In this document: positions 17,073-59,435 of the stretch, one piece after another
Numbering within the stretch: the stretch's first letter is position 1
Layout of the letters: each line of letters begins with the position of its first letter
NCBI GenBank assembly: GCA_014874265.1
Contig: JACWAM010000109.1
Location: 4,808 to 68,807, forward strand
Length of the DNA stretch: 64,000 nt
Direction: 5' to 3'
DNA from: Thermoleophilia bacterium
GTDB lineage: Bacteria; Actinomycetota; Thermoleophilia; BMS3ABIN01
Position numbers and translations under genes: made by a program
The notes under the pieces: model-generated
What the model saw: the letters and a program-made list of their open reading frames with translations, nothing else
What the model was told of the DNA's origin: nothing
Database searches by the model: none

Positions 17073-17179
17073 TTTCTTGTGTCTGGTTGCAGGTTTTCGT
17101 TCCAGGTTCTGATGAAAAACTATGAACCAGAAACCGGAAACGCGAAACCGGTAATTTATTTTCTTATGGATAGAAGTTA

Positions 17180-17650
17180 ATGAAAGATGTTAAGTATATT
17201 TCCGTGATTGGAGCCGGCGAGTGTGACGCAGGGACAGCCCGGATGGCGAAAGAAGTGGGCAGGCTGATCGCCCGGGCCGGCGCGGTTCTGGTTTGTGGCG
17301 GCATGGGCGGCGTCATGGAAGCGGCCTGCCGCGGAGCCAAGGGCGCGGGCGGCACCACCATTGGCATCCTGCCGGGGCTGGACCGCCGGGATGCGAATGA
17401 ATGGCTGGACTATTCTGTTTGCACCGGCATCGGGCATGCGCGCAACCTGGCTGTTGCCGCCAGCGGAGCCGCAGTCATCGCGATCGGCGGTGAATTTGGA
17501 ACGCTGTCAGAAATAGGACTTGCCCGCAAATGCGGGCGGCCGGTTATCACGCTGGAAAGCTGGGAGATTAAGAAAGACGCCGGCACCCCTCCGGGTGTGA
17601 CCCCGGCAGCGACGCCGGCAGAAGCCGTCAGGATGGCTCTTGATCAATGA
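17180..17650 (+). CDS. TIGR00725/LOG-like (SLOG) Rossmann-fold protein.
   Basis: 156 aa. GxGxxG-like CGGMGGVMEA, and a PGxxGTxxE-like GGEFGTLSEI motif typical of the LOG/DprA-like superfamily. Confidence 0.5.
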   Translation: MKDVKYISVIGAGECDAGTARMAKEVGRLIARAGAVLVCGGMGGVMEAACRGAKGAGGTTIGILPGLDRRDANEWLDYSVCTGIGHARNLAVAASGAAVIAIGGEFGTLSEIGLARKCGRPVITLESWEIKKDAGTPPGVTPAATPAEAVRMALDQ

Positions 17651-23295: not shown

Positions 23296-23600
23296 TGTTT
23301 CCGTTTCTGTTTAAACTCAAAATTATCGCCAAACGCGCAGGCGAAAGAAAAGTAAAAACACTTTTGCGCTTCGCTTATTCCAGCGGCGCATCCTGCCGGG
23401 ATTTTCGCTCGGTTGGTGTCGTTCTTCTTGCGAAGGCGCCCCCGATAATTATGCACGACTTCCGGCGGCGGGTCCAAACGGTCCGTCAAGAGAAAAGCGT
23501 TGTACCAGCTGAGAGCAGGCCGCGAGCGGCTTCGGCGCGATCCCGCCAGGCAGCTCAAGGAATTATAATGTTGATTATCCCAGGTAAGCTATGCGTCTGT

Positions 23601-23634
23601 AAAAAATGAGAAGAGGCACCTGACAGATGCCTCT
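23601..23634 (-). terminator. Rho-independent terminator on the minus strand, inside the heme-cluster gap.
   Basis: On the minus strand, AGAGGCA-9 nt loop-TGCCTCT is followed by UUUUUU (the plus-strand A-run is at 23601-06). Confidence 0.55.
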
Positions 23635-23677
23635 CTCAACGTTCTCTTCTACCAACCAGCCCAGCTTGGGTGGTTTT

Positions 23678-23705
23678 AAAGATTGTGAACATGATCACAA
23701 TCTTT
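23678..23705. promoter_or_regulatory. Perfect 10-bp-arm palindrome matching the Rex (or CRP/FNR-type) operator TTGTGA-N5/6-TCACAA.
   Basis: The palindrome is aaagaTTGTGAacatgaTCACAAtcttt. The core TTGTGAACATGATCACAA (23683..23700) matches 17 of 18 positions of the Firmicute Rex consensus TTGTGAAnnnnTTCACAA. Confidence 0.5.
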
Positions 23706-23933
23706 GCGGCACCCTTCCCATATTCATGCCCCGATTGATGATGGAGACGCATCTCAACACAAGACCCATCGCTTTCGCGACATTGCTTACGGGAGCGGCC
23801 CGTCAAAGGACCGTTTAATCAAAGTGCGCCTTCAACCTTCCCGTTTATGACGCTGCCAAAAAATTCCGCCTCCGTGACAACTTCCGCTACCGGAGCCCGC
23901 TTCATACCGCAGCTAATACCACCCAGGGGTATT

Positions 23934-23962
23934 ACCATAAGCTTTCGGCGACGGTTTGTCAA
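23934..23962 (-). promoter_or_regulatory. Sigma-70-like promoter on the minus strand (TTGACA-17-TATGGT), firing into the non-coding gap.
   Basis: Minus strand reads TTGACA (plus 23957-62), a 17-nt spacer, then TATGGT (plus 23934-39). It lies about 100 nt downstream of the ahbA stop. Confidence 0.4.
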
Positions 23963-24065
23963 TAATTTTTAACCCGTAAAAAGAGGAATTATTCAGGGCC
24001 CGAGCGGCTTTTCCGGCAGATTCCCAATTTACCGGAGCCCGGCCCAGCGATTCTGCCGGGCCAGC

Positions 24066-24548
24066 CTATTCGATAAAGTACTTCATGCTTATTTTCTTGA
24101 ACTCGCGGCTGCTGTACAGCAGCGAATAATTTTCGATGCCGGTCTTCCTTGCCAAATCAGCGGCCACTTTCTCGCATTCCTCCGGGCTGCCGCCATGGAT
24201 CATGGCAAACACATTAAAATCCCACTGTTCCGCCCGGGTCCGTTCATAGCAATGGCTCACTTCGGGAGCAGCCGCCAGAATGCGGCCAACCTCTTCGGAA
24301 CGGCCCTCCGGAACATCCCAGGCGCTCATGGCGTTGGCCGTGTAACCGAGGCGCTGGTGGCGCACCATGGCGCCGAAACGGCGGATTGTGCCCTCCTGCT
24401 TCCAGCGATCCACGCGCGAGATAACTTCTTCCGGGCTCATCCCTACCTGGGCGGCAATATCGACAAACGGCCGTGGCGTCAAGGGAATGCTCTCCTGGAG
24501 GAGTCGCACCAACTTTCTCTCGCGATCATTAAAAACCTTTGAGTTCAA
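24066..24548 (-). CDS. ahbA: AsnC/Lrp-like siroheme decarboxylase subunit (AhbA/AhbB family, NirD/L-like).
   Basis: 160 aa. HTH plus a ligand-binding domain. It sits beside a second paralog and two radical SAM genes in a siroheme context. Confidence 0.65.
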   Translation of the reverse strand: MNSKVFNDRERKLVRLLQESIPLTPRPFVDIAAQVGMSPEEVISRVDRWKQEGTIRRFGAMVRHQRLGYTANAMSAWDVPEGRSEEVGRILAAAPEVSHCYERTRAEQWDFNVFAMIHGGSPEECEKVAADLARKTGIENYSLLYSSREFKKISMKYFIE

Positions 24549-24640
24549 TGTTCAAAGTTCCAGGTTCAAAGTTCAAAGATTCCAGTTTCCAGTTGTCAGG
24601 TTAGGAGTTCACGCTGAACGTTAAGCATTAAACATTAGAT
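24541..24640. repeat. Degenerate tandem GTTCAAAG / TTCCAG repeats in the ahbA-ahbB intergenic region.
   Basis: gagttcaatgttcaaagttccaggttcaaagttcaaagattccagtttccagttgtcagg... Confidence 0.6.
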
Positions 24641-25084
24641 CATGGGCAGATCAACCTGAATCTTGAACAGGCGCGTTGCCGGAAGGTCGAGGACAGGACC
24701 AACGCCGGCGGCTTTCTCAATCTCCATCAGGATCTCGCCGATGCGCTCACGGCTGGGAGCAATCAGAGTAAACCAGACGTTATAGTAATGGTTGCGTTCA
24801 TAATTATGGGTGACATTGTGATATGAGTTTATCGCCGCCACCGCCTTTTCCAGTTTCTCCCGCGGCACATGCAGGGCGCAGAGGGTACTGGTGTAACCGA
24901 GCCGGCGGGAGTCAAATGACGCTCCCAGCCGCCGGATCTCACCGGATTTCATTATCTCCTCGATCCGGCTGATGACTTCCTGCTCGCTGATGCCCAGCTG
25001 CCGGCCGATGGCTGCGTAGGGACGGTCTGTTATCGGAAAATCCGACTGAATCAAAGTTATTAATTGCTTGTTAATTTCATCCAT
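24635..25084 (-). CDS. ahbB: AsnC/Lrp-like siroheme decarboxylase subunit (AhbA/AhbB family).
   Basis: 149 aa paralog of the previous gene (SDFPITDRPY.. vs ESIPLTPRPF..). Confidence 0.65.
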   Translation of the reverse strand: MDEINKQLITLIQSDFPITDRPYAAIGRQLGISEQEVISRIEEIMKSGEIRRLGASFDSRRLGYTSTLCALHVPREKLEKAVAAINSYHNVTHNYERNHYYNVWFTLIAPSRERIGEILMEIEKAAGVGPVLDLPATRLFKIQVDLPMI

Positions 25085-25096
25085 AACACAGTTCCG

Positions 25097-25192
25097 GCTT
25101 CAAAGTTTGAATTTCAAAGCTTGTCAAAAAAGTCTGGTTTCCAGAGTATCTGAAGTTACATATTTCAACTTGGAACTTTGAACTATCTTTTC
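25097..25192. repeat. TTCAAAG direct repeats with an inverted TTGGAACTTTGAAC partner, between ahbB and the radical SAM gene.
   Basis: cttcaaagtttgaatttcaaagc ... ttcaacttggaactttgaact. Confidence 0.6.
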
Positions 25193-26211
25193 GCCTTCGG
25201 CTGGTATATGCAAAACGGCTCTTCGCCGAGATAATCCCCGGTAAGTTCGTAGGCGCGAGCCCGGCAACCGCCGCAGAAACGGCGGTACTCACAGTAGCCG
25301 CAGCGCCCGTGATAGCCGTCCAGATCTCGCATCTGCCGGAAAACCGGCGAGCCGGCCCAGATATCGCCAAAGCTTTGCTCTTTCAGATCGCCGCATTCGA
25401 CGTCCAGGAAGCCGCAAATCTGAACCTTGCCCCGGTGCGAGATAAAACAAAATCCTTGCCCGCCGAGACAGCCTTTGGCCCGGGCGTCCATGCCGAAGGC
25501 CTCAGCCGTCACCTTCCTTCCCTCGGCGTGCGCCCGCTGCCGGAGAATGCGGTAGTAATGGGGAGCGCAGGTTGGCTTGAAACTGAGCGGCAGCCGGTCC
25601 CGCTGATCGTAAACCCATGCCAGTGTCTCCTCGTACTGCTCGGGAGACAGCTCCTGATCGGCAAGCTCGCGGCCGCGGCCGGTGGGCACCAGCAGAAATG
25701 GATGGAACGCCACCGCGCCCAGGTCTAACGCCAGCTGCAGGATGGCGGGAAGCTCGGCCAGGTTTCCTTTTGTCACAGTCGTATTAATTTGAAATTTAAT
25801 GCCCGCCCTCCGGGCGGCTTCGATACCTTTGATAACGTCGTCAAAAGCCCCGGGAACCTGGCGGAAATCGTCGTGGGTGGCGGCCGTGGCGCCGTCGATG
25901 CTTAAAGATATACGCTCGATGCCGGCTTCTTGCAGCCGCGCGGCGCTGACATCATCAAGGAGGCTGCCGCAAGGCGACATCACCATCTTCAGGCCCCTTT
26001 CCGTACCATAGCGGGCAATGTCATAAATGCCTTCGCGCATCATCGGGTCGCCTCCGGTGAGGATGACGATCGGCTGCCCCGTGGCGGCGATTTCATCGAT
26101 CACCTGAAAACACTTCTCCAGGGGCAACTCTCCCGGGTAGGGACCCTTCTCGGCGGCAGCGCGGCAATGACGGCAGGAGAGCCCGCAGCGGCGGGTGACT
26201 TCCCAAGCCAC
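25183..26211 (-). CDS. Radical SAM/SPASM heme-pathway enzyme (AhbC or AhbD family).
   Basis: CGLSCRHC CxxxCxxC motif and C-terminal auxiliary-cluster cysteines (CGFLDVECG...CGYCEYRRFCGGC). The track ORF extends to 26310 through a TGGATG repeat. The GTG at 26211 is a more plausible start. Confidence 0.7.
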   Translation of the reverse strand: MAWEVTRRCGLSCRHCRAAAEKGPYPGELPLEKCFQVIDEIAATGQPIVILTGGDPMMREGIYDIARYGTERGLKMVMSPCGSLLDDVSAARLQEAGIERISLSIDGATAATHDDFRQVPGAFDDVIKGIEAARRAGIKFQINTTVTKGNLAELPAILQLALDLGAVAFHPFLLVPTGRGRELADQELSPEQYEETLAWVYDQRDRLPLSFKPTCAPHYYRILRQRAHAEGRKVTAEAFGMDARAKGCLGGQGFCFISHRGKVQICGFLDVECGDLKEQSFGDIWAGSPVFRQMRDLDGYHGRCGYCEYRRFCGGCRARAYELTGDYLGEEPFCIYQPKAKR

Positions 26212-26478
26212 CAGGCGAATGGTGGATGATGGATTGTGGATGGTGGATTTTAAATGATTGTTTGTTTTTGGGGAATTAGTTGTCATAGATGGCTCAGGTG
26301 GCGTGCCCATTTCACTAAATTGATATACGTACTATTATTGTTAGTCGTTAATCGGGAGATTCAGAGCTCAAAATTCAAGGCTTCCAGCCCGAAGTTAATA
26401 ATTGCTCATACGACAAACTTTGTCCCAATCCAAATTTGTCTTTTCCCCGCTTAACAACAAGTAAATCTTACACCAGTT

Positions 26479-27702
26479 TCAACTTTGAACTTTGAACGCG
26501 AAACCTTGAACTTCCTCATCGGTCAGATAACAGGCCGGGTCCGGCGCCCAGGGGTCATTATGGACCAGATCGGCGCGCACCCGGAGCGCCCCGCCGCAGG
26601 CGTCGAACCATCTGCAGGTGCGGCAACGGCCGTGAATATGGCTCCGCCGGTCTTTAAGGCCCGCCATCAGAGGATCAGATGCGTCCATCCAGATCTCGCT
26701 GAACGGACGTTCATGCACGTTGCCAAAGCTGTAGTGCATCCAGAACTGATCCGGATGGACATTGCCGTCAAAGTCGATGTCGCCAAAGCCGACCCCGGAG
26801 CTGTACATGCCGCCGCCGTTCCATTTCAGCAGCCGCATCACCGATTCCGCCCGCGCCTCGTCCTCGGCCAGCAGTTTCAAATAAAGGTAGATGCCGTCCA
26901 CATGATTGTCCACCGTGAGGATGTCTTTCTCCAGGCCCCGGTCGTGCATATCCCTGGTCCGGGCCAGGATGATGTCCAGCGCATCGCGCGTCTCCTCATG
27001 AGTCAGGTCGTCGCTTTCCTTCCCGCGGCCGGAATAAACCAGATGGTAAAAACAGGCGCGGTCGATCTTTTCGGCCTCGATGAAATCAAAGATGCGGTGC
27101 AGGTCGCGGTAATTGTGCCTGGTCAGCGTCAGGCGCAGCCCCACGCGCTGCCCCGCCTGCTTGCAGTGGCGAAAACCGGCCATCGCTTTGGTAAAAGCGC
27201 CTGGCTGGCCCCGGAAGGCGTCGTTAACGCTGCCGATTCCGTCCAGGCTAATGCCAACGTAACTAAAACCGATTTTCTTGATCCTCCGGGCGGTCTCCTC
27301 GTTGATCAACGTCCCGTTCGTCGATAGAGTGGGCCGGATTCCCAGGCTGACGGCGTGGCCGGCCAGCTCAAACAGATCTTTTCGCATAAGCGGCTCGCCG
27401 CCGGAAAACAGCAGCGCCGGAATCCGGAACCGGGCCAGGTCATCGATCAGAGCTTTGCCTTCCTCGGTGGAAAGCTCTCCCTCGTATTTCTTGGCCTCGG
27501 AATCAGTGTAGCAATGAACGCATTTCAGGTTGCAGGTTCGGCTGACGTTCCAGGCCACCACCGGCCGCCGCTCCGCGGCTGACCGCGGCCGCCGGGGAAT
27601 GAGCGGGGCGCCCGCCATCGGCCGGCCCTGGCGCCCGTGCCCGTAGCGCAGCGAATCGGCCGGCGTATCACGGCCGCAGTAGAGGCGGGTGATGTCAATC
27701 AT
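26479..27702 (-). CDS. Radical SAM/SPASM heme-pathway enzyme (AhbC or AhbD family).
   Basis: CNLKCVHCY CxxxCxxC motif and a C-terminal HGRCRTCRWFDACGG cysteine cluster. 407 aa. Confidence 0.7.
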   Translation of the reverse strand: MIDITRLYCGRDTPADSLRYGHGRQGRPMAGAPLIPRRPRSAAERRPVVAWNVSRTCNLKCVHCYTDSEAKKYEGELSTEEGKALIDDLARFRIPALLFSGGEPLMRKDLFELAGHAVSLGIRPTLSTNGTLINEETARRIKKIGFSYVGISLDGIGSVNDAFRGQPGAFTKAMAGFRHCKQAGQRVGLRLTLTRHNYRDLHRIFDFIEAEKIDRACFYHLVYSGRGKESDDLTHEETRDALDIILARTRDMHDRGLEKDILTVDNHVDGIYLYLKLLAEDEARAESVMRLLKWNGGGMYSSGVGFGDIDFDGNVHPDQFWMHYSFGNVHERPFSEIWMDASDPLMAGLKDRRSHIHGRCRTCRWFDACGGALRVRADLVHNDPWAPDPACYLTDEEVQGFAFKVQS

Positions 27703-27729
27703 GTTATTCCTTTACAATCTTCTTGGTTT

Positions 27730-29301
27730 TCAGTTGTGGCCGGATCCGGCGGCGGCTGCTTTGACAACTGCTTCCATCAGGCCGGGAATCGTAAATTTTT
27801 CCGCCACAATATCAACGCGCAGGCCTAATCCCCTGGCCGTTTCCGCGGTCACGGGACCGATGCAGGCGATGATCACACTAGCGGGAATGCCGGCAAGATC
27901 CATGCCGTTGAGGATCGCTGCGAAATTTCGCACCGTAGAAGAACTCGTAAAAGTAATTATATCAATTTCCCCGGACGCGATCATACGGCGCATCCGGTCG
28001 GCGCCGCCGTCGTCGCGGACGGTTTCGTAAGCGGTGACTACTTTCACCCGGGCGCCCGCCGCCGCCAGACTTTCGGGAAGCACCTCCCGGGCTTCTTTAG
28101 CCCTCGGAATCAGCACCCGCTTTCCTTTTATGCCAAGCCCGAGCAATCCATCAACAATAGATTCCGCGCGGTACTCCGGGGGAACGAAATCAGGCTTCAG
28201 CCCGCGCTCGCGCAGAGACGCCGCCGTCGCCGGTCCAATCGCTCCCAGCTTTATGCCTTTCAAATCCCGGACATCGGCAACCAGGTCAAAGCGTGTGAAG
28301 AAATGATCCACGCCGTTCACGCTGGTGAATATGATCCAGTCGTACGCGGGAGCGGCTTTGCCTTTCAGCCCGCCGATGGCGGCGTCCAGGTCCGCGTAGC
28401 CGCCGGCGGGAGGAACGACCTTGATGGTGGGAAATTCCACCGGCTCGGCGCCGGCCGCGGCCAGGGCCTCGGTGAGAACGCTGGCCTGGGCGCGGGAGCG
28501 GGTGACGACGACTCTCCGGCCAAACAGGGGCCTGTCCTCAAACCAGCGCAGCTCTTCCCGCAGCTTTACGACTTCCCCCACCACCGTGATGGCGGGCGCC
28601 TGAAAGCCGCGCTCCCTGGCCTGATCAACGATGTTTGATAAATTGCCCGTAATTGTTTCCTGCCGGGGCGTAGTTCCCCAGCGAATCAGCGCCACTGGCG
28701 TCTCTGGGGACCGGCCGCTTCTGATCAGATTTTCGACTATCAGGGAAAGGTTTTTCACACCCATGAGAAAGACAAGCGTGCCGACACCAGTTGATATTTT
28801 ATCCCATTTTATCATTGACTCCGGTTTGGCCGGATCTTCATGCCCGGTGATAAAAGCCACGTCGGCGGCGACGCCGCGGTGGGTGACGGGGATGCCGGCG
28901 CAGGCAGGCACGGCGTAAGCGGAAGAAACCCCGGGGATTACTTCAAAAGGCACCCGCGCGCGCCGAAGCGCCAGCGCTTCCTCGCCGCCGCGGCCGAAGA
29001 TAAATGAGTCTCCCCCCTTCAGGCGCGCCACCGTCTTTCCGGCCAGCCCTTTGGCCACGAGCAGGTCATTGATATCTTCCTGGTTCATGGCATGGGTGCC
29101 CCCCTTCTTGCCAGCGTAAATCAGCTCTGCGCCCGCCGGGGCGTATCCGAGCAGTTCCTTGCCGGCCAGGTAATCATAGACAACAACTTGAGCGGCCCGG
29201 ATACATTCCACGCCCTTGAGAGTAATCAGGCCCGGATCCCCGGGACCGGCGCCGATTAAAAAAACTTTGCCTGTGGAGTGTGTCTCACTCATTTGTTCCA
29301 A
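27730..29301 (-). CDS. cobA-hemD: Uroporphyrinogen-III C-methyltransferase (N-terminal) fused to uroporphyrinogen-III synthase (C-terminal).
   Basis: N-terminal VFLIGAGPGDPGLITLKG (SUMT) and a C-terminal HemD-like domain. 523 aa. It is the first gene of the minus-strand heme operon. Confidence 0.8.
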   Translation of the reverse strand: MEQMSETHSTGKVFLIGAGPGDPGLITLKGVECIRAAQVVVYDYLAGKELLGYAPAGAELIYAGKKGGTHAMNQEDINDLLVAKGLAGKTVARLKGGDSFIFGRGGEEALALRRARVPFEVIPGVSSAYAVPACAGIPVTHRGVAADVAFITGHEDPAKPESMIKWDKISTGVGTLVFLMGVKNLSLIVENLIRSGRSPETPVALIRWGTTPRQETITGNLSNIVDQARERGFQAPAITVVGEVVKLREELRWFEDRPLFGRRVVVTRSRAQASVLTEALAAAGAEPVEFPTIKVVPPAGGYADLDAAIGGLKGKAAPAYDWIIFTSVNGVDHFFTRFDLVADVRDLKGIKLGAIGPATAASLRERGLKPDFVPPEYRAESIVDGLLGLGIKGKRVLIPRAKEAREVLPESLAAAGARVKVVTAYETVRDDGGADRMRRMIASGEIDIITFTSSSTVRNFAAILNGMDLAGIPASVIIACIGPVTAETARGLGLRVDIVAEKFTIPGLMEAVVKAAAAGSGHN

Positions 29302-29515
29302 GTTCCAATTTCAAAGTTTTTAAACTTGTTAATCTACCTGTTTACTCAAGCGGCAACCATCCTGAGCCGAAGGCAAGCGATCTTTTTATAAAGCCCCGGT
29401 TTCCGCAAAATTGACTCCTTAGAATGACAAATCAACAGGAAGTTGGATTCCATGCAACAAGTCTGTGTAAAACTCAAATGCTGGGATACTTTTAACGTTG
29501 ACCCGGCGCTTTGAC

Positions 29516-36165: not shown

Positions 36166-36234
36166 CAGAATAGATGGTAGATAGTGGATGTTGGATGGCG
36201 GATGCTGGAAAAAAACCATGAATGGTGTTGAGAT

Positions 36235-37440: not shown

Positions 37441-37484
37441 CCCTTTCGCCTGGAACTTTGAACTTGGAACTTTAATTTGAGTTT

Positions 37485-40030: not shown

Positions 40031-41332
<1,302 letters not shown>

Positions 41333-41353
41333 TTAACATTTAACGTTAAACGT

Positions 41354-42187
41354 TTAACGTTTTGCATGCTGATAATATTCCTCCTGGCGCTCAAGCGGCA
41401 AGCTGGCGAAGTCATCCCCGTTTTCCCGGGCCAGCACCTCGGCCCGCTCCACCCGTCGTCGGAAGCGGTCCGCCGCGCTCCGGAGCGCCAGCTCCGGATC
41501 AACCTGCAGCTTCCGGGCCAGGTTGACCACGGCAAAGAGGACGTCTCCCAGCTCGTGGTAAGCCTCCGTGCCAGGTCCGCGACCGCCGACCGCCGCTTCC
41601 GGCGCCGCCTCGGCCGCGAGCGCCGCGCTCAACTCGGCGATCTCTTCCTCGATCTTGGTAAAGACGGGCTCGGGCCGGTCCCAGTCAAATCCGACGGCTG
41701 CGGCGCGTGATTGCATCCGCCTGGCAAACAGCGCCGCCGGCAACGATCCCGGCGTATCATGGAAGATGCCTTCCCTGCCCTCGCGCTCGCGCTTGATCTG
41801 CTCCCACCGCTCTACCACCTCGGCGGCGGTGCTTGCCTCTGCCTGGCCAAAGACGTGCGGATGGCGCCGCACCAGTTTCTCCGTCACCTCCGCAGCCACG
41901 CGGCTCAGATCGCCCCAGCCACGCTCTTCGGCAATCAGGGAGAGAAAGAAGATGTGAAAGAGGAGATCCCCCAGCTCGCCGGTGACCCCGGCGCCGCTGC
42001 CCGCATGAACTGCGTCGATCAGCTCGTAGGTTTCCTCAAGGGTATGGCTGACGATATCGCCAGCGTCCTGTTCGCGGTCCCAGGGACATTCACGCCGGAG
42101 GCGGCGGACGACCGCGTCCAGTGAAAGCAATGCTTCCGCCAGGCGCGCCTGATCAGAGTCGGGTAGGCTGCCGCCGGCCAATCTCAT
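41354..42187 (-). CDS. mazG: Nucleoside triphosphate pyrophosphohydrolase MazG.
   Basis: ECPWDREQ motif and tandem EExxE MazG repeats. Confidence 0.8.
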   Translation of the reverse strand: MRLAGGSLPDSDQARLAEALLSLDAVVRRLRRECPWDREQDAGDIVSHTLEETYELIDAVHAGSGAGVTGELGDLLFHIFFLSLIAEERGWGDLSRVAAEVTEKLVRRHPHVFGQAEASTAAEVVERWEQIKREREGREGIFHDTPGSLPAALFARRMQSRAAAVGFDWDRPEPVFTKIEEEIAELSAALAAEAAPEAAVGGRGPGTEAYHELGDVLFAVVNLARKLQVDPELALRSAADRFRRRVERAEVLARENGDDFASLPLERQEEYYQHAKR

Positions 42188-42202: not shown

Positions 42203-43225
42203 TTACGATCCGGACGATGTTGTCTGCCCGTTGGATGGTTCAGTGGTTGCCGGCGCCCATCCGGGCGAGTAAGTGATGCTGTAGCGCTTGCGCGCGTCGC
42301 TTATCCAAGTGTTGAAGGTTTGCTGTTCCCTCTCCATGGCCAGGCCCTGCTTCAGGTTATCCTTGACCTGATCGAAGCTCTCAAGGCCGGCGGGCTTGAT
42401 CGACTCAACCTGGATAATATGCCAGCCAAACTGCGTCTTGACCGGATCGGAGGTCTGGCCGGCGCTTAACTTGTCCATGGCCTGCTCGAACGCGGGCACG
42501 AAGCCGCTGTTTTGGCTGGGAATGTCCGGGCTGCCGTCGGACGTGGTCAGCTCGCCGCCCTTGTCCTTGCTGCCGGGGTCGATCGAATACTGCTTGGCCA
42601 GCGTCGCGAAATCGGCGCCCGCGTCCAGCTGCGCCTTAATCTTCTGGGCCGTCGCCAGGTCGGACACGAGGATATGACGCACCCGCCGCGTCTCCGGCGC
42701 CTGGAAGGTCTGGTCATTTTTATGCTGGTTGTAATAATCCTGGGCTTCGGCGTCGGTCACCGGCGGGTCATTTTTTGTCACTTCGGCGATCAGTTTCCGG
42801 AAATAAAGGTCGTCCTTCATCATGTTCCGGAGCTGATCGCCGCTCACCCCGGCGCAGCTCTCCTGCTGCTTCAGCTTGGCCGAGCCGCCCAGAGCGTTCT
42901 GCTCCTCAGTGATGGCCTGGCTGATCTCACTGTCGCTAACGGTGATCCCTTTTTTGGCGGCCTCGGAGTTGATGATCCGCTGGCTGACCAGAACGTCAAC
43001 CATCTGGGTTTCGTAGGATTTAAACTGAGCGGTACCTGGTTTTCCGGCGGCATCGCAACCGTCCCTGAACTTCACTTCGCGGTCAACTTCCGCTTTAGTG
43101 ATGTCCTGACCGTTCACCTTGGCGAGGCTCACGGAGCTACTGCCGCAGCCAGCCAGCACAAGCAGGACGACAAGCACAGCCATGGCGGCAACTGCATATG
43201 TTACCCTTCTGGCCCTTTTTTTCAC
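42203..43225 (-). CDS. prsA: Peptidyl-prolyl cis-trans isomerase lipoprotein (PrsA/parvulin-type), copy 1.
   Basis: LAGC lipobox and a PpiC domain (FGWHIIQVE). 340 aa. Confidence 0.75.
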   Translation of the reverse strand: MKKRARRVTYAVAAMAVLVVLLVLAGCGSSSVSLAKVNGQDITKAEVDREVKFRDGCDAAGKPGTAQFKSYETQMVDVLVSQRIINSEAAKKGITVSDSEISQAITEEQNALGGSAKLKQQESCAGVSGDQLRNMMKDDLYFRKLIAEVTKNDPPVTDAEAQDYYNQHKNDQTFQAPETRRVRHILVSDLATAQKIKAQLDAGADFATLAKQYSIDPGSKDKGGELTTSDGSPDIPSQNSGFVPAFEQAMDKLSAGQTSDPVKTQFGWHIIQVESIKPAGLESFDQVKDNLKQGLAMEREQQTFNTWISDARKRYSITYSPGWAPATTEPSNGQTTSSGS

Positions 43226-43297
43226 TACGGCTCCGTCTGTCTGTCCAGCGGTTGCATTATGATGCCGGCGGTTTTGATCAGTTGCTGCCGGCCTGGA

Positions 43298-44320
43298 TCA
43301 ATGCCCCGTGGCCGGCGCCGTGGAAGCCGGTTTGCTGCTGCCTGTCGCCGGCGCGGTCTTGTAAGGATTGAACTCATCGGAGTATTTGATGTCGTAGTTT
43401 TTCTTGGTCTTGTCAAGCCATGTCATGAAAGCCTGCTGCTGGTTGTTCTGCGCCAGCTGGCTTTTGATCTCGGACTCGACCTGGCTGAAAGGCGCTACTC
43501 CAGGGGGAATGATCTGGTCGACCCGGATAATGTGATATCCATCCGTTGACTTGACCGGGTCCGATGTCTGACCGGCGCTTAGCTTGTCCATCGCCTGTTC
43601 GACTTCGGTTGGCAGGCCGCTTTGCTGGCTGGGAATCTCGCCCAGGTCACCGCCATTATTCTTGGTGCTGGTGTCGGTCGAATACTGCTTGGCCAGCGTC
43701 GCGAAATCGGCGCCGGCGTCCAGCTGGGACTTGACCTTCTGGGCCGTGGCCTGGTCCGCCACCACAATCTCGTGCACCTTCCGGGTTTCCGGCTTCTGGA
43801 AAGTCTGATCGGTTTTATGCTGGTTATAATAATTCTGGGCCTGCGCGTCGCTCACCGCCGGCTGATTCTTGGTCACCGCCGCCAGCAGCTTCTGGTAAAG
43901 CAGTCCCTTGCGGATATTATCCTTGAGGTGATCGAGTGTCATGTTTTGCTGGTTGAGCGCGTTCTGAAACTGCTGCTCACCGCCGGCCGACTGCTTGATC
44001 TGGTCAACTTCCTTGTTAATGTCGGCATCGCTGACATCAAGACCGCGCTTGTCCGCCTCAAACCACATTACTTCTTCATTGACAAGCTCTTCCGTCACCT
44101 GTTTCTCAAAATCAGTGTATTCCGGCGTGCCCTGCTGGGGAATGCCGGCTTGATTTCCGTACTGCGCCTTGATATCGGCGATCTTGCTGTCCAGATCTTC
44201 CTGGGTAATGACCTTGCCGTTCACCTCGGCTACGGCGCTCTTCGGCAAGCTGCCGCAGCCGATCGCCACGAGCGGAATAATTGCCACGACCGCAAGCGCC
44301 AGAATCAGTTTTTTTATCAT
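43298..44320 (-). CDS. prsA: Peptidyl-prolyl cis-trans isomerase lipoprotein (PrsA/parvulin-type), copy 2.
   Basis: IGC lipobox and a PpiC domain (DGYHIIRVD). About 55% identical to copy 1, including an identical nucleotide block. Confidence 0.75.
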   Translation of the reverse strand: MIKKLILALAVVAIIPLVAIGCGSLPKSAVAEVNGKVITQEDLDSKIADIKAQYGNQAGIPQQGTPEYTDFEKQVTEELVNEEVMWFEADKRGLDVSDADINKEVDQIKQSAGGEQQFQNALNQQNMTLDHLKDNIRKGLLYQKLLAAVTKNQPAVSDAQAQNYYNQHKTDQTFQKPETRKVHEIVVADQATAQKVKSQLDAGADFATLAKQYSTDTSTKNNGGDLGEIPSQQSGLPTEVEQAMDKLSAGQTSDPVKSTDGYHIIRVDQIIPPGVAPFSQVESEIKSQLAQNNQQQAFMTWLDKTKKNYDIKYSDEFNPYKTAPATGSSKPASTAPATGH

Positions 44321-47608: not shown

Positions 47609-47632
47609 GGGGAAGAGGCTGTCTGGCGGCTT

Positions 47633-47727
47633 TGGATTCTGGATCCTGGACTCTGGATATAACTTTCAATTTGACAAGGCTAGATTTTTCAGTTTTATCC
47701 AGAATCCAGCATCTGGAATCCAGGATC
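47633..47727. repeat. Inverted repeat of CTGGAT pentamer-type units, flanking a 37-nt spacer between the pth 3' end and the mfd start.
   Basis: ggattctggatcctggactctggata ... tatccagaatccagcatctggaatccaggatc. Confidence 0.6.
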
Positions 47728-48336: not shown

Positions 48337-48419
48337 AGAGAGAAGGAGAAATAATCTAAGATGTCAATGGTGGAGGGTGCACCATCCTGATTAACCCGGC
48401 AGACGGCTCATAAAATTTT

Positions 48420-49082: not shown

Positions 49083-49102
49083 TGAAACCTCAATTCATTT
49101 TG

Positions 49103-49164
49103 TTCAAAGTTCCAAGTTCAAAGTTGTGGTAACCCCAAGTTCGTTGAACTTGGAACCTTGAACT
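49103..49164. repeat. Large imperfect inverted repeat (about 23-bp arms) built from GTTCAAAG/TTGGAAC units, between ctc and prs.
   Basis: GTTCAAAGTTCCAAGTTCAAAGTTG...tggtaacccca...CGTTGAACTTGGAACCTTGAAC. The arms are 21/23 complementary. Confidence 0.7.
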
Positions 49165-51606: not shown

Positions 51607-51669
51607 ACAGTGCTCTCCGGCAGGCAGCAGATCCCGAAAGCAGCAATATTATCCAGAATCCGATGCATG

Positions 51670-51744
51670 CTGGCTGGGGCGGGAGGATTCGAACCTCCGA
51701 ATCACGGGACCAAAACCCGTTGCCTTACCACTTGGCTACGCCCC
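51670..51744 (-). tRNA. tRNA-Gln (anticodon UUG).
   Basis: The reverse complement reads UGGGGCGUAGCCAAGUGGUAAGGCAACGGGUUUUGGUCCCGUGAUUCGGAGGUUCGAAUCCUCCCGCCCCAGCCA. It has a U1-A72 pair and the T-loop GGTTCGAAT, and closely matches E. coli tRNA-Gln. Confidence 0.8.
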
Positions 51745-51889
51745 ATGGGCAGCCAGCGAAGGCCGAAAGAGTATATCACAAAGCAGATTCTGGATGCATG
51801 ATCTGGACGCTGGATCAGAAAAGAAAAGGCGGCCGGCCAACCGTACCGGGGTTATAAATCAGGCCTGCGGATGCACCCGCGGAAAAACG

Positions 51890-56427: not shown

Positions 56428-56487
56428 AGAAGGGGCAATTGCCGCTTCTTCTTGGCGGGGGCGCAACTTGCGCCCCCGCTTTTCAAG
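56428..56487 (+). terminator. Tandem GC-rich hairpins followed by TTTT (terminator or attenuator-like) on the plus strand.
   Basis: The palindrome aagaaggggcaattgccgcttctt is followed by gcgggggcgcaa-c-ttgcgcccccgc and then ttttcaag. Confidence 0.4.
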
Positions 56488-56648
56488 TTCAAGGTTAACA
56501 AGTTCATAATTCAAAATCCGAAAATCAAGAGCAGAGCGGATTCCTCGGTAAAGGTAGAGGCGAACACAGCGAGAGGGCGGCCCGTACGGGCCGCCCTCTC
56601 CTCCTTGAGGCGCAGCGAGCTGCGCCATTCCTGCTTTGTTTGTCGCCT

Positions 56649-57108: not shown

Positions 57109-58464
57109 TTATTTGCCAATCCGTCGTTCACGGGACGAAGGAATGGCTGCTTCCTCGCGGTACTTGGCGACGGTCCGGCGAGAGATGCTGATGCCATCCT
57201 GATTAAGAATTACTGTCAATTTTTGATCCGATAGCGGACGGCGGCGGTCTTCCGCCGCGACCAGCTCTTGCAGGCGTTTCTTCACGGCGGTGGCGGCCAG
57301 CGGACCTTCAGCCGCCCGGTAGCCCGCTGAGAAGAAATAACGCATCTCGAAGACCCCGTAGGGGGTGCTCATATACTTGCCGACGATGGCGCGGCTGATC
57401 GTAGAAGGATGCACATCCAGCTGCGCCGCCACATCAGCCAGACTCAACGGCGCCAGCGCGCCGGGACCGCGCTGAAAAAAATTCTGCTGCGCCGCGGCCA
57501 CAGCCCGGGCCACCTTTGTCATGGTAACCCGCCGCTGCTCGACATCGCGGATTAGTTTTCTCGCCTCGGCAATCCTGGAAGTGATGTAGCCGGCGGTTTC
57601 GGTATCGCGGTCGCTGGCGCCCGCGTCCGCCGCAATTTTTTGATACTGTTTGTTAATCCTGAGCCTGGGAAGCAACTCCCGGTTGGCCAGGACCTCAACG
57701 CCTTCGCTGCCAGGATGGACATAAACGTCCGGGATGATCGCCGCCGGCGGCTCGTCGCTGTCAAATAACGATCCCGGCGATGGATTCAGGCCGCGAATTA
57801 TTTCCATGGCTTTTTCCATCTGCGCCGGCGAAGCATTTAGTTCGCGGGCGATTTCCCTGGTTTTGCCCTTGCCGGCGGCCGCCAGATGATCTTTAACGAT
57901 TACCTGCGGAAGGCGGCCGGCGCCCATCTGGCGCAGCTGGATCAGGAGGCACTCCGGCAGCGAGCGGGCCCCGACTCCGGGAGGGTCAAAGCCCTGAACG
58001 ACGGCGAGCGATTTAAGTACGGCGGGGGCCGGGTTGCCGAGCGCCGCGGCGATATCCTCAACTGAATCGCGCAGGTAGCCGCGGCTGTCCAGGCTGGCGA
58101 TAATGGCCAGCCCCGGCCTCATTTGAGACGCCGGCAGATTTTCCAGAGCCAGTTGCAAATTCAGGTGATCCGTGAGAGTAACCGGGGTCGAGACAAGCTC
58201 GGATGAGTCTAGCGGGGGCGCTGCCGAGCGGCGGCGCTTGCCGGCACGGTTAGCGGCTTCCAGATCCTGCCAGAGCTTTCTGGCGCCGGCGGCGGTGTCA
58301 GGGCCCGCGGGCTCGGGGATTTCCAGGACGGGGTTCTCTTCCAGGTTTTTCTGAACCAGCTCCATCAGCTCGGGGGCGGCCATTCGGAGAATTTTGAGGC
58401 TTTGATAGAGGCGTGGGGAAAGCTTCTGCTCCTGCCGCGCCGATGGGGAAGGCCTGATCTTCAT
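57109..58464 (-). CDS. rpoN: RNA polymerase sigma-54 factor.
   Basis: N-terminal activator-interaction region (LSPRLYQSLKIL), and the C-terminal RpoN box ARRTVAKYRE. Confidence 0.85.
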   Translation of the reverse strand: MKIRPSPSARQEQKLSPRLYQSLKILRMAAPELMELVQKNLEENPVLEIPEPAGPDTAAGARKLWQDLEAANRAGKRRRSAAPPLDSSELVSTPVTLTDHLNLQLALENLPASQMRPGLAIIASLDSRGYLRDSVEDIAAALGNPAPAVLKSLAVVQGFDPPGVGARSLPECLLIQLRQMGAGRLPQVIVKDHLAAAGKGKTREIARELNASPAQMEKAMEIIRGLNPSPGSLFDSDEPPAAIIPDVYVHPGSEGVEVLANRELLPRLRINKQYQKIAADAGASDRDTETAGYITSRIAEARKLIRDVEQRRVTMTKVARAVAAAQQNFFQRGPGALAPLSLADVAAQLDVHPSTISRAIVGKYMSTPYGVFEMRYFFSAGYRAAEGPLAATAVKKRLQELVAAEDRRRPLSDQKLTVILNQDGISISRRTVAKYREEAAIPSSRERRIGK

Positions 58465-58616
58465 GATAATAGTTTAATCTTTCTCCGTTAATGATTCACG
58501 CTTGCACGGATTAAATGCGAGGAGTCAAATACGTGAGAGCGAATACAATCGATTGGCAAAGATCATAATCAAGCTCCCGAGTTAAATAACTTTGAACTTC
58601 GAGCGTGGAACTCAAA

Positions 58617-59435
58617 CTAGTAGTACGACAGGCTGCCGTCTTTTTTCGCCCGGCCAACCGCAAAGCTGAAGATCACCAGGCTGATGGGAAGCATAATCAG
58701 CGAGAATAAAACCAGATTGACGAGATTGCCGGCAATGGCGGTAAATCCGGCTCCTTCAAGGAGCGACAGCCGGATTGCTTCCAGCGCATAAGTGATCGGG
58801 AGCAGATGGGAAATATCCTGTAGCCAGCCGGGCATGATCGAGATCGGGTAATAGACGCCTCCGAGTAACGTTGAGGAAGTGCTGAAAATATATGCGATCG
58901 GATCTCCTCTTTTGAAAAGCATGATGAAGCTCGCGGAGATTACCCCCAGACTGCTGAAAGCGATCACGGTCAGCACCAGCGCCACCAGCGCCGGCAGGAT
59001 ATTGGCTCCGGACAAATCAAGACCAAAAGCAATCGCCCCCACAAGCAGGTAGACGCCCACTCTCAGAGCGGTGAAGGTGAAGTCCCATTGTACTGAAGAG
59101 AGGATAATATTGGAGAGCCGCGTCGGCGTTACCAGCATCGCCTCCAGCGTGCCCATCATCTGTTCGGCGCGGATGCTGGTGGAGAAACTGCCCAGGCCCA
59201 CGCCCAGGAAACTGGAAAAGGCGATGCCAATCACCACGAATGAGAAATAATTACCGCCGTACGCCTTCAAGGCATGATGGACGCTGGGAGCGCCGCCGAG
59301 CAATTTGGCGACGAAGTAAAACATTGCCACCTGGAAAAATATTCCCGTAAACTGAAGCACGAAGGAGAAACGGTAGCTGACCTCCAGCAGGAAGTCCTTC
59401 TTCAGAAAAGCCATCGGTTTGCGAAGGGCGCTCAT
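58617..59435 (-). CDS. ABC-2 type transporter permease.
   Basis: 272 aa, 6 TM helices, downstream of the ABC ATPase. Confidence 0.65.
   Translation of the reverse strand: MSALRKPMAFLKKDFLLEVSYRFSFVLQFTGIFFQVAMFYFVAKLLGGAPSVHHALKAYGGNYFSFVVIGIAFSSFLGVGLGSFSTSIRAEQMMGTLEAMLVTPTRLSNIILSSVQWDFTFTALRVGVYLLVGAIAFGLDLSGANILPALVALVLTVIAFSSLGVISASFIMLFKRGDPIAYIFSTSSTLLGGVYYPISIMPGWLQDISHLLPITYALEAIRLSLLEGAGFTAIAGNLVNLVLFSLIMLPISLVIFSFAVGRAKKDGSLSYY

Follow-up and report, generated by a model that had tools for sequence, protein, structure and literature searches.

Short, closely similar oligonucleotides recur between the genes of a 64,000-nucleotide stretch of a Thermoleophilia bacterium contig (the window), in places as inverted repeats as long as the one between prs and ctc. 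The question is what such sequences are: mobile elements or their remnants, transcription terminators, arrays of protein-binding sites, or simple-sequence repeats grown where they stand, and whether they do anything for the genes that they adjoin.

Repeat unit and array sites

The repeat unit is seven bases long, not eight as in the earlier note, which had not seen the period of seven. TRF finds at least 15 period-7 arrays in the window, and a lag scan at equal stringency returns 10–14 segments at lag 7 versus 0–5 at each other lag from 4 to 15, with lag 14 (2 × 7) the highest of these. The units GTTCAAA, GTTCCAA and GTTCCAG form tandem arrays in short spacers between genes; a second class, overlooked before, consists of ATCCAGA and ATCCACC (ATCCRNN; complement CTGGATN, or NNYGGAT). 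Eight to 11 of the lag-7 arrays fall in non-coding DNA, which is about 12% of the window. The 7.2 kb of non-coding DNA contain 12 of the 8-mers originally noticed, against 0.6 ± 0.8 expected from dinucleotide shuffles, and the 57 kb of coding DNA contain four, a roughly 24-fold difference that bears out a genome-style family enriched outside genes. The GTTCMAR/YTKGAAC 7-mers occur 18 times in non-coding DNA, where shuffles give 4.7 ± 2.2. The repeats are real and far beyond chance.

They do not occupy nearly every spacer, as had been thought, but 13 of the 43 longer than 30 nt. They are, as described, A/T-rich islands in a 59% GC genome (58.8% in the window, rather than the 62% given before). 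The sequences reported earlier are present at all sites listed, although those at 56485–56530 and 58588–58618 are weak and below detection thresholds. The arrays are also not purely intergenic: most are, but those at 12063–12099, 26214–26251, 26482–26514 and 47697–47727 lie inside genes, these four arrays entering the first or last ~10 codons.

In the left part of the window, (GTTCAAA)x3 (6560–6590, plus strand; period 7 by TRF) lies 6 nt past the stop of an otsB-like gene. In the same convergent spacer, the arm AACTTTTAACTTTGAAC (6672–6696, plus strand) overlaps the stop of a minus-strand PIG-L-like gene; the two arms match at 19 of 21 positions across a 91-nt loop, with a fold z of −2.4. A second-class array, (CTTTGGA)x5 (10175–10215, plus strand; TRF), is located in the divergent spacer between a GT4 gene and the selA region, folds with z −2.0 and has a small hairpin, then a T-run, downstream. 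Also of the second class, (ATCCAYC)x4 (12063–12099, plus strand) comes right after the ATG-GAA-GAA of selB and constitutes SelB codons 3–14. Past the stop of a helicase gene, GTTTCNN and NNGAAAC heptamers form a hairpin (17063–17151, plus strand; MFE −32.0, z −2.3), consistent with the symmetry reported for 17078–17155; the U-rich run TAATTTATTTTCTT that follows it makes this the best terminator candidate among the sites listed.

In the ahb region, eight units (24542–24640, minus strand; GTTCAAA/GTTCCAG/ATTCCAG on the plus strand; TRF periods 7 and 21) occupy the whole spacer between two nirD/L-like (ahb) genes, with a weak partner at 24615–24640. Mirrored arms, detected by TRF and arm pairing, follow at 25097–25187 (minus strand), the arm at 25163–25187 directly past the TAG stop of a radical-SAM gene and that at 25097–25125 preceding the next start. 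The 5' part of that radical-SAM ORF (25183–26310) contains (ATCCAYC)x4 of the second class (26214–26251, minus strand; ATGGTGG x4.3 by TRF), a sequence that is unstructured and lies just upstream of the Radical_SAM domain (Pfam domain from residue 37). A further mirrored pair with a 75-nt loop (26348–26514, minus strand) has a sense MFE of −50.5 versus −35.3 for the antisense; with the reading frame assigned by hand, its arm 26482–26514 forms the last 11 codons of the radical-SAM gene 26479–27702. The array of TTGGAAC/TTTGAAA (29294–29318, minus strand) ends 3 nt short of the likely cobA-hemD ATG, which has no Shine-Dalgarno sequence.

Two solitary arrays follow on the plus strand: (NNTGGAT)x4 (36177–36205), of the second class, 11 nt past a stop codon, and the forward array CTGGAAC TTTGAAC TTGGAAC (37449–37475; TRF), between a stop and the GGAGG-led start of a BcrAD/BadFG-type ATPase gene. 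The palindrome previously placed at 41323–41358 is confirmed as a near-palindromic (ACGTTTA)x4.9 array (41329–41362, minus strand; z −2.2) that lies between the mazG stop and the eno Shine-Dalgarno sequence; in the related genome L001, this position is taken by a TTGACA-17-CATAAT promoter together with other repeats. In the pth-mfd hairpin (47630–47727, minus strand; TRF; MFE −43.9, z −4.9), which pairs second-class arms, 27 of 32 positions are Watson-Crick pairs; its 5' arm (47697–47727) is the last 10 codons of pth, and its 3' arm (47630–47657), of ATCCAGA type in sense, ends 22 nt upstream of the mfd ATG. The tRNA-Gln gene is flanked by second-class repeats on both sides. The motif CGGATTCTGGAT (51648–51670, minus strand) is just 3' of it, and (ATCCAGN)x3–4 in tRNA sense (51783–51816, minus strand; six-genome alignment) lies between a canonical terminator (51830–51843) and the conserved extended −10 of tRNA-Gln (TGATATACT). 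The site at 58588–58618 (minus strand), after an ABC-2 permease stop and upstream of rpoN, is a weak remnant of the first class (z −0.8).

A strong fold relative to shuffles belongs to the prs-ctc array (49101–49164, minus strand), and the long inverted repeat recognised there at 49103–49164 stands: its 24 positions comprise 22 Watson-Crick pairs, one G-U pair and one mismatch, and its MFE of −36.1 kcal/mol compares with −18.7 ± 2.7 for shuffled sequences (z −6.4). The 5' arm runs from the prs TAG onward, the loop is 20–22 nt, and the 3' arm ends 18 nt ahead of the ctc GTG, leaving the GAGG Shine-Dalgarno sequence outside the stem; no T-tract comes after it. The same hairpin is present in an independent assembly, L201.

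Distribution and turnover among relatives

There are 1.8–4.3 arrays per 10 kb in the window and in the relatives L001, L002 and L003, whereas 1.07 Mb from more distant genomes has a density of 0.10 per 10 kb; L202 and L203 have two arrays each. In a genome with genes 92% identical to those of the window, the orthologous spacers have other units or arrays in the corresponding position. The prs-ctc spacer is ~74% identical there, and the ctc-pth and mazG-eno spacers cannot be aligned. At orthologous array sites the length is constant, 80 nt in both genomes, and the sequence is scrambled as if by substitutions. In more distant relatives the spacers are compact, 15–25 nt with a Shine-Dalgarno sequence only, and no insertion scar was found when filled and compact orthologous sites were compared. 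Different arrays in orthologous spacers, together with compact spacers in distant relatives, indicate in-situ turnover rather than insertion of a preformed element, and it is well supported that the arrays arise and turn over in place, through duplication in 7-nt steps and local inverted duplication, in whatever short spacer exists.

From species to species, the arrays vary in number and in the units that they contain. The selB 5' array is identical at 55 of 60 nt in L202 and L203, whose SelB proteins are 66–68% identical to that of the window, and it has four copies in all three lineages. Pairing between the two ends of selB was considered and rejected: a complementary array is found at the 3' end of L203 selB, but it is not conserved in L202 and is weak in the window. 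The L201 assembly, the only near-identical one compared, shows four mismatches to the window over 5.1 kb, every one of them at the contig end, with identical arrays and no indels. It is an exact-protein contig of the same population, essentially the same genome, so that the lack of length polymorphism in it is uninformative about variation between strains; the imperfect units and the identical arrays in L201 give no sign of ongoing slippage.

Gene ends, mirror order and transcript structure

Within the clade, 22 of 29 arrays point into the gene end closest to them. The same polarity was seen in a single metagenome scan for YTKGAAC arrays, which returned (YTKGAAC)n arrays in at least 120 unrelated contigs. 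There, solitary forward arrays are beside starts 18 times versus 7, reverse arrays after stops 13 times versus 5, and long ORFs begin 5–15 nt after a forward array 15 times versus 2 on the other side. About 28% of the metagenome arrays are inverted, and the pairs almost always keep one order: 5'-(GTTCMAR)n...(YTKGAAC)n-3' (type A) at 24–28 unrelated loci, versus 1–3 of type B. This symmetry is independent of the orientation of the flanking genes (stop/stop 6, co-directional 7, start/start 4).

Our preferred reading, for which we see roughly an even chance, is that these are lineage-enriched heptanucleotide simple-sequence-repeat arrays (of the long SSR/STRR class) kept as untranslated-region elements. 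To judge from sequence, they would be retained as working, or at least tolerated, untranslated parts of the flanking genes, which they reach and sometimes enter by a few codons. Mirrored pairs of the form 5'-(GTTCMAR or NNYGGAT)n-loop-(YTKGAAC or ATCCRNN)n-3' would form, once transcribed, long hairpins that are rich in A/U, often imperfect and start from the upstream stop codon. Such hairpins may act as intercistronic or 3' structures that block 3' exonucleases, serve as a processing site or terminate transcription in part. The arm on the side of the downstream gene, or a solitary direct array, would provide a U-rich or C/A-rich, G-poor unstructured leader abutting the start codon, compatible with initiation without a Shine-Dalgarno sequence.

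The folds agree with this picture in part. Array stems in the window are A/U-rich and 20–30 bp long, with loops of 11–91 nt. The ctc-pth spacer of L001 folds at z −7.0 into a stem in which five paired bases alternate with two open ones, again a period of seven, and in L003 the direct C/A-rich arrays preceding prs are less structured than their shuffles (z +2.3). Hairpin strength is poorly conserved between orthologues (pth-mfd of L001, z −1.8; prs-ctc of L003, z −0.5). Stem mismatches, considered as a sign of selection on the RNA, show no significant G-U bias on the sense strand (23 G-U versus 13 A-C, with 29 transversions). An Rfam 15 scan matched none of the arrays, only tRNA-Sec and tRNA-Gln reaching the gathering score, and permissive scans of the two strongest hairpins gave chance-level matches to miRNA precursors (17–24 bits versus thresholds of 70–117).

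At start codons, the forward arrays of cobA-hemD, of prs in L002 and L003 and of many metagenome loci are without a Shine-Dalgarno sequence. In L002 and L003, an insert of ~85 nt made of direct ATCCRNN arrays adjoins the prs ATG and no Shine-Dalgarno sequence remains, while all array-free prs orthologues have AAGGAGG-type sites. That arrays replace the Shine-Dalgarno sequence is true for prs in these two genomes, but it fails generally: ctc, eno and the gene at 37485 retain GGAGG or GAGG downstream of the array, and selB and mfd have no such site in array-free relatives either. Complementarity of the units to the 3' tail of 16S rRNA was also considered, using the generally conserved tail sequence as the window has no 16S gene, and gave no convincing match.

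An alternative of lesser though appreciable probability is that the arrays are neutral by-products, in which a bias of replication slippage towards 7-nt steps fills unconstrained spacers, arrays are selected against only where they harm a gene, and neither they nor the hairpins have a function. Slippage of the polymerase is a proposed cause of heptanucleotide repeats (Mrazek 2007, as cited in PMC4679880 and PMC4692102). The lack of covariation and of a G-U bias in the stems, the rapid turnover between close relatives and the extension of arrays into dispensable gene ends all suit this explanation, as does the company of many unrelated unit types in heptamer-rich genomes: the metagenome genomes with YTKGAAC arrays have ~100 further heptamer arrays of ~78 other unit types, versus 1–28 arrays at other lags. 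Slippage, however, predicts neither the strict chirality of mirrored pairs nor their polarity towards gene ends. Against neutrality also stand the nucleotide-level conservation of the selB array and the recurrence of both motif classes, at loci that differ, in species with genes only ~70–77% identical at the DNA level.

A more speculative and somewhat unlikely reading is that a grammar with constrained orientation, common to different phyla, [gene end]-(GTTCMAR)n-centre-(YTKGAAC)n-[gene end], marks an unrecognised class of cis-element that is read by a conserved machine and is not a mere slippage product. The mirror order would be fixed with each array aimed at its adjacent gene, and ATCCRNN/NNYGGAT would be the parallel version in this clade. 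This machine might be the ribosome or its protein S1, an RNase, or a protein that binds nucleic acids directionally, and the arrays could, for example, link termination at one cistron with initiation at the following one, or make up a modular terminator built of repeats. Stop-codon content was considered as a cause of the polarity, as TTTGAAC arrays carry TGA in all frames and GTTCAAA arrays none; it cannot explain it, since CTGGAAC, TTGGAAC and the second-class units are stop-free both ways yet obey the rule.

That the repeats are factor-independent, partly bidirectional terminators or attenuators appears rather unlikely. Hairpins do begin 0–20 nt past stop codons, six of 24 metagenome pairs lie between convergent genes, many enclose a G+C-rich central palindrome, and the type A order of TTTGAAC/CTTGAAC units places U-runs in and after the 3' arm. 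The earlier note had held that the arrays are not canonical terminators because T-tracts are mostly absent, and this is so: the usual G+C-rich stem of 5–14 bp with a short loop and a U-tract is not seen at the arrays, except for the U-rich tail at 17063–17151, where UAAUUUAUUUUCUU comes after the hairpin. A terminator consensus scan gave nothing strong at array hairpins, only a 5-bp stem at 47712–47724 and one at 10248–10225, whereas canonical T-run terminators are found elsewhere in the window. Most hairpins of the window are inside conserved operons (glmU-prs-ctc-pth-mfd and the ahb operon) and are without U-tracts. Richness in U of the 3' arm is also not the cause of the mirror order, which is unchanged for the U-poor arms made of CCTGGAA or of second-class units such as ATCCAGA.

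We consider it quite improbable that the arrays work at the DNA level, bound by a directional protein (nucleoid-associated or a global regulator) that recognises the heptamers, with mirrored arrays marking the centres of spacers and some arrays replacing the −35/UP region of promoters. The mirror symmetry, being indifferent to gene orientation, would fit such a role equally well, as would the A/T-rich character of the arrays. At tRNA-Gln, four genomes have ATCCRNN arrays exactly at the position of the −35 boxes of L004 and L005 (TTGAAG/TTGACC), upstream of the conserved TGnTATACT; being upstream of the predicted −10 box, these arrays would be outside that transcript, which speaks against a role in the RNA at this gene. 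Loop lengths spanning 4–114 nt and arrays with anything between 2 and more than 10 copies, however, do not suggest a defined protein complex, and no candidate binding protein was identified. Where arrays abut an ATG or enter coding sequence there is no room for a −10 box and leader; sigma-70 consensus scans of the arrays were inconsistent, with a clear promoter context only at tRNA-Gln. A sigma-54 promoter, considered as rpoN is in the window, does not fit either, its −24/−12 spacing being on inspection incompatible with the 7-nt period.

The origin as REP/BIME/REPIN or MITE-type mobile elements or their remnants, suggested before, is very improbable and already contradicted: the repeats are intercistronic, hairpin-forming and numerous in the genome, as REP/BIME are, and their fixed two-arm order is one that terminal inverted repeats would show, but the copies agree neither in boundaries nor in loop, share no consensus except the 7-nt unit and lack target-site duplications, unit types vary by site, the prs-ctc stem takes in the prs stop codon and last coding bases, and no transposase, RAYT included, is among the 30 window proteins scanned. 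Together with the differing orthologous arrays, this identifies in-situ simple-sequence repeats. Instances without shared boundaries were what the earlier note had itself named as refuting its proposal. Contingency loci, in which gain or loss of units switches genes as the heptanucleotide repeats of the Haemophilus influenzae hmw genes do in phase variation (compare PMC12721329), are scarcely credible here, for although seven is not a multiple of three and the selB and pth-end arrays could shift the frame, the units are imperfect, the genes are housekeeping genes, the selB copy number is fixed and the two assemblies of the same population show no length difference.

Relation to known repeat systems

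Heptanucleotide repeats have been a statistical oddity of bacterial genomes since 1990–2007, and the arrays described here are a new lineage and motif for this already described class. The clade offers a compact, well-delimited case, with two motif classes at housekeeping operons, orthologous spacers that in related genomes contain arrays, other arrays or none, and one array, at the selB 5' end, conserved in sequence. The fixed mirror order and gene-end polarity, shared with unrelated metagenome contigs, form a simple regularity that can be tested. If this regularity reflects function, it would point to a widespread way to organise translation or transcript ends without Shine-Dalgarno sequences. 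Even if not, they move predicted starts and stops and put tails on Pth, SelB and radical-SAM proteins, and their strong hairpins can break assemblies and mislead gene callers.

The REP/BIME (REPIN) sequences of enterobacteria and pseudomonads are intercistronic hairpins in many copies that affect mRNA stability and, near stop codons, translation; REPs have a conserved palindromic consensus of ~35 bp, defined ends and a cognate RAYT transposase. Here, only the 7-nt period and a loose unit are common, arms, loops and ends differing at every site, and the conserved internal sequence of a MITE is likewise missing. The mycobacterial interspersed repetitive units (MIRU) are actinobacterial tandem repeats in operon spacers, polar and touching the flanking stop and start codons, and in these respects the present arrays resemble them. 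MIRU units are 40–100 bp long and carry small ORFs bridging the neighbouring genes; with TGA in all three frames, forward TTTGAAC arrays allow no such bridging ORF.

A literature search for the tandem strings themselves found them in no bacterial paper among those covered. The GGGAATC repeats of Xanthomonas and GGGGA(T/C)T repeats of Nostoc (Rehm et al. 2015, PMC4692102) are likewise intergenic heptamers, some in inverted pairs between convergent genes, and at the same loci vary extensively in length and sequence between close relatives. These G-rich repeats were studied as G-quadruplex formers (PMC4692102), which the A/T-rich or C/A-rich units here cannot be. The TAACTGA repeats of marine Beggiatoaceae, some Cyanobacteria and Bacteroidetes (MacGregor 2015, PMC4679880) are forward heptamer arrays of 2–6 copies a few nucleotides from starts; as here, they occur at housekeeping genes, some inside ORFs. 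They overlap the place of the ribosome-binding site without a canonical Shine-Dalgarno sequence, like the arrays of cobA-hemD, of prs in L002 and L003 and of many metagenome loci. The motif differs, several arrays here keep a Shine-Dalgarno sequence downstream, and inversion, seen in one of 170 sets in BOGUAY (PMC4679880), is the rule in the window.

The closest relation is to the heptanucleotide long SSRs (Mrazek, Guo & Shah 2007), including the STRR of the cyanobacteria Calothrix and Nostoc; according to the accounts of that work in PMC4679880 and PMC4692102, the long SSRs of many bacteria are most often heptanucleotide repeats. As far as those accounts go, the two share tandem, mostly non-coding 7-nt units, a period of seven that stands out, sporadic occurrence across lineages and several unit types per genome. 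Differences are the lineage, an uncultured Thermoleophilia-like Actinomycetota clade, the units YTKGAAC and ATCCRNN, and arrays that are short (2–8 units) and imperfect, mostly in mirrored pairs with a fixed order and gene-end polarity, features that PMC4679880 and PMC4692102 do not describe for the class. With head-to-tail 7-nt copies, an excess in non-coding DNA and lineage-wide occurrence, the arrays of this clade belong among the long SSR/STRR repeats.

Heptanucleotide arrays and their gene surroundings

The earlier note described the repeats of the window as 8-mers, but their period is 7 nt. Tandem Repeats Finder reports about 15 period-7 arrays, among whose units are GTTCAAA, GTTCCAA, TTTGAAC, TCAAAGT, ACGTTTA, AACCGGA, TTTGGAT, ATCCACC, ATGGTGG, TGGATTC and ATCCAGA. 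When lags of 4–15 were scanned at equal stringency (12/14, 13/16 or 14/18 matches at a given lag), lag 7 gave 10, 13 and 14 segments at the three stringencies, against 0–5 at each other lag, the maximum being at lag 14 (2 × 7). Non-ORF DNA, about 12% of the window, holds 8–11 of the lag-7 segments. Every site first listed carries its reported string, and the intergenic enrichment of the 8-mers is borne out: there are 12 in the 7.2 kb of non-coding DNA (0.6 ± 0.8 expected from dinucleotide shuffles) and 4 in 57 kb of coding DNA, so the observation is real and far above chance. Of these sites, those at 56485 and 58588 are marginal. Rather than nearly every spacer, 13 of the 43 longer than 30 nt contain an array, and the GC content is 58.8%, not 62%.

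Apart from GTTCMAR units and their complement YTKGAAC (class i), there is a second class, overlooked in the earlier note, with ATCCRNN on one strand and NNYGGAT on the opposite strand (class ii). Class ii arrays are located at 10175–10215, 12063–12099, 26214–26251 and 36177–36205, as a pair at pth-mfd (47630–47657 and 47697–47727) and on either side of tRNA-Gln. Intermediate units, for example GTTCCAG/ATTCCAG and TTTGGAC/TTTGGAT, bridge the two classes.

By Pfam, the arrays sit among ordinary housekeeping genes: selA-selB-tRNA-Sec, the alternative-haem (ahb) operon (24066–29301, with arrays in every spacer), a 2-hydroxyacyl-CoA-dehydratase-activase-like cluster, mazG-eno, glmU-prs-ctc-pth-mfd and tRNA-Gln. 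Four arrays enter ORF ends, namely codons 3–14 of selB (followed by LVLGTAGH), the 5' part of the radical-SAM ORF at 25183–26310, the final 11 codons (26482–26514) of the radical-SAM gene at 26479–27702, with the tail …VQGFAFKVQS-stop, and the final 10 codons of pth (47697–47727), with the tail …DPGFQMLDSG-stop. In the last two, the array supplies both the C-terminal tail and the stop codon, as it does for SelB in the relative L203 (L203 11920–11955); repeat growth has thus moved gene ends.

Other features of the window were also observed. The sigma-54 (RpoN) gene at 57109–58464 (reverse strand) is complete, encoding the activator-interacting, core-binding and DNA-binding domains; to our knowledge, Actinomycetota are generally regarded as lacking RpoN, and a complete one is unusual under that label. 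The 770 nt at 23296–24065 contain no convincing ORF and have no Rfam match; they include several sigma-70-like promoter matches, among them TTGACA-17-TATGGT at 23962–23934, and a strong terminator at 23635–23611. Two tandem SurA-like PPIase paralogues of 340 amino acids each, about 73% identical in parts at the DNA level, lie just downstream of mfd (42203–44320, reverse strand). Ahead of the first pth ATG, within a 140-nt spacer, a polypyrimidine run (TTTCTCCTTCTCTCT; 48337–48352, reverse strand) is kept in the close relative L001; the Logan gene call places the pth start 19 codons further in, probably at an in-frame GTG preceded by AGGGAG.

Orthologous spacers and distribution of the arrays

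For the window Prs protein, there is a copy with 98% identity in L001, a sediment metagenome-assembled genome labelled Actinomycetota whose genes show about 92% DNA identity, and there are copies with 79–87% identity in metagenome-assembled genomes labelled Thermoleophilia or Actinomycetes (L002–L012). The prs-ctc spacer of L001 has the 80 nt and architecture of that in the window, but is only about 74% identical and has different units. L003 has GTTTCGC-type units, and in L002 and L004–L012 the spacer is array-free and about 15–90 nt long (just 15–25 nt, with a Shine-Dalgarno sequence, in L005, L006 and L008–L012). At ctc-pth and mazG-eno, the window and L001 spacers are too different to align, in spite of 92% identity in the genes on either side. 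Both the window and L001 have overlapping glmU and prs genes, with an AAGGAGG site for prs. In L002 and L003, about 85 nt of direct arrays, of ATCCGGA or ATCCACC units, are inserted; the insert ends in ATCCGTTTT(G/A)(C/T)C-ATG and has no Shine-Dalgarno sequence. All array-free orthologues keep the prs Shine-Dalgarno sequence.

Among the array copies, no shared ends, shared loop or duplications, including target-site duplications, were found, and the prs stop codon is part of the prs-ctc stem base. The REP/BIME-like or MITE framing of the earlier note is therefore wrong, and a mobile element is a most improbable source of the arrays. The comparisons show turnover in situ, not mobility. The window and L001–L003 hold 1.8–4.3 arrays per 10 kb, and L202 and L203 (relatives compared at selA-selB) about 1–1.5; the density is near zero in L004–L012 and L205–L207, and for other genomes it is 0.10 over 1.07 Mb. 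The trait is clade-specific.

Hairpins, polarity and mirror order

Mirrored arrays are predicted to form strong hairpins. The one noticed earlier between ctc and prs is confirmed, with 22 Watson-Crick pairs and one G-U pair out of 24 and a minimum free energy of −36.1 kcal/mol, against −18.7 ± 2.7 for shuffles (z −6.4). Values for the others are −43.9 kcal/mol (z −4.9) for the pth-mfd spacer, −37.7 (z −2.4) for 6555–6705, −32.0 (z −2.3) for 17055–17185, −12.8 (z −2.2) for 41305–41365 and −37.7 (z −2.0) for 10160–10300. A 206-nt element in the L001 ctc-pth spacer (L001 11725–11930) reaches −69 kcal/mol (z −7.0), its stem alternating five paired bases with 2 × 2 internal loops, again period 7. 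The window lacks this element, which has an outer stem of heptamers surrounding a perfect inner hairpin of 11 bp (TTAGCTCAGAG...CTCTGAGCTAG-like) and another small hairpin; it may represent a small RNA or have been inserted recently. Direct C/A-rich arrays are the opposite: the L003 leader before prs folds worse than shuffles (z +2.3), and the selB and radical-SAM leaders are predicted to be unstructured. Stem mismatches show no significant G-U bias on the sense strand (23 G-U, 13 A-C and 29 transversions), so structure alone does not prove an RNA-level role. An Rfam search of the window returned tRNA-Sec and tRNA-Gln only, and in permissive scans the strongest hairpins matched nothing but generic miRNA-hairpin models, at chance level.

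Scanning metagenome contigs for GAACYTKGAACYTKGAAC yielded at least 120 loci (31–70% GC); none of the 120 listed, to which the following counts refer, is related to the window. Chosen solely by one (YTKGAAC)3 array, they contain 217 lag-7 segments in 641 kb, against 1–28 at lags 5, 6 and 8–11, and about 100 of the 217 represent some 78 other unit types. Other heptamer arrays, such as GGTCAAT, AATCCGC, CTTACGG and CATTTAAC, often lie side by side, and many array ends read ...GAACTAT(G). Mirrored pairs are ordered 5'-(GTTCMAR)n-loop-(YTKGAAC)n-3' at 24 loci and reversed at one (28 against 3 with a looser partner search), whether flanking genes are convergent (6), co-directional (7) or divergent (4), and are usually 0–20 nt from a stop or start. 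Solitary arrays point their GAAC end toward the nearest gene end, being forward before starts (18 against 7) and, after stops, having GTTCMAR in the sense of the gene (13 against 5). A long ORF starts 5–15 nt past a forward array in 15 cases, against 2 on the opposite side, and recognisable N-termini directly follow ...GGAACTATG, for instance MLVLGIETSCDET, which we take to be TsaD-like. In the window clade, 22 of 29 arrays, of both unit classes, follow the polarity rule, most exceptions being artefacts of crude gene calls. Stop-codon content and U-richness of the 3' arm were considered as sources of the polarity, but neither accounts for CTGGAAC-type or class ii units. The rule looks general enough to merit testing.

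Possible role and relation to known repeats

The arrays may be retained as parts of untranslated regions, a reading in which we have about even confidence. Hairpins starting from an upstream stop codon would be intercistronic or 3' structures, and a start-proximal arm or solitary array would be an unstructured leader on which initiation could do without a Shine-Dalgarno sequence. Against this stand the lack of G-U bias in the stems, the weak conservation of hairpin strength among orthologues, the restriction of the Shine-Dalgarno correlation to prs and the position of the tRNA-Gln arrays upstream of a predicted promoter.

A neutral slippage product is possible but unlikely. The first 60 nt of selB, ATG GAA RAA, (ATCCAYC)4 and CTGGTTTTAGGCACCGCCGGCC, agree at 55/60 positions in the window (12057–12116), L202 and L203 (10001–10060 in both), with the four units translated as MEE/KIHHPP/SSTIHH, although the L202 and L203 SelB proteins are only 66–68% identical to that of the window and the DNA upstream is unrelated. 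Other clade lineages lack the array, SelB starting there with M-x(3-6)-[RQ]HLVLGT. Such conservation is difficult to explain if the repeat is purely neutral; constraints on the protein or on the reading frame may play a part. The selenocysteine insertion set of this locus (10547–14180) is complete (selA, selB and tRNA-Sec) and syntenic in L202–L207, and several genomes have an unannotated ORF of 69–83 amino acids upstream of selA.

Repeat-built terminators or attenuators, which overlap with a role in untranslated regions, are a rather doubtful explanation, and DNA-level binding arrays or promoter architecture are slightly more doubtful still. The tRNA-Gln promoter bears on the latter, being legible across an alignment of six genomes (window 51768–51845, reverse strand) as TGnTATACT, situated some 24 nt ahead of the mature 5' end. 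In four genomes, ATCCRNN arrays lie between a canonical terminator and this conserved motif; where these have arrays, L004 and L005 have TTGAAG or TTGACC, the only canonical −35 boxes of the six. In the window, a textbook terminator (CGGTTGGCCGGCCG and TTTTCTTTT) is immediately upstream of the promoter. Phase-variation loci are very improbable.

PMC4679880 and PMC4692102 credit Mrazek et al. (2007) with finding that, in many prokaryotic genomes, heptanucleotide repeats outnumber every other long simple-sequence class, with three Actinobacteria within the ten richest, and with proposing that 7 nt reflects the stretch of DNA that the polymerase holds, favouring slippage. Cyanobacterial STRR heptamers have been known since 1990. 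The intergenic GGGAATC repeats of Xanthomonas, described by Rehm et al. (2015), are in some cases inverted pairs and are highly variable among close relatives at conserved loci (PMC4692102). MacGregor (2015) described TAACTGA repeats of 2–6 copies, most forward and just upstream of start codons, without a canonical ribosome-binding site, and suggested S1, Csp or CsrA-type binders (PMC4679880). Our literature search found no bacterial paper containing the present tandem strings. The window arrays are a real and statistically robust feature and belong to this known class, sharing with it tandem 7-nt units, above-chance excess, non-coding bias and lineage-wide spread; they differ in their lineage, their units and their dominant mirrored, polar arrangement.
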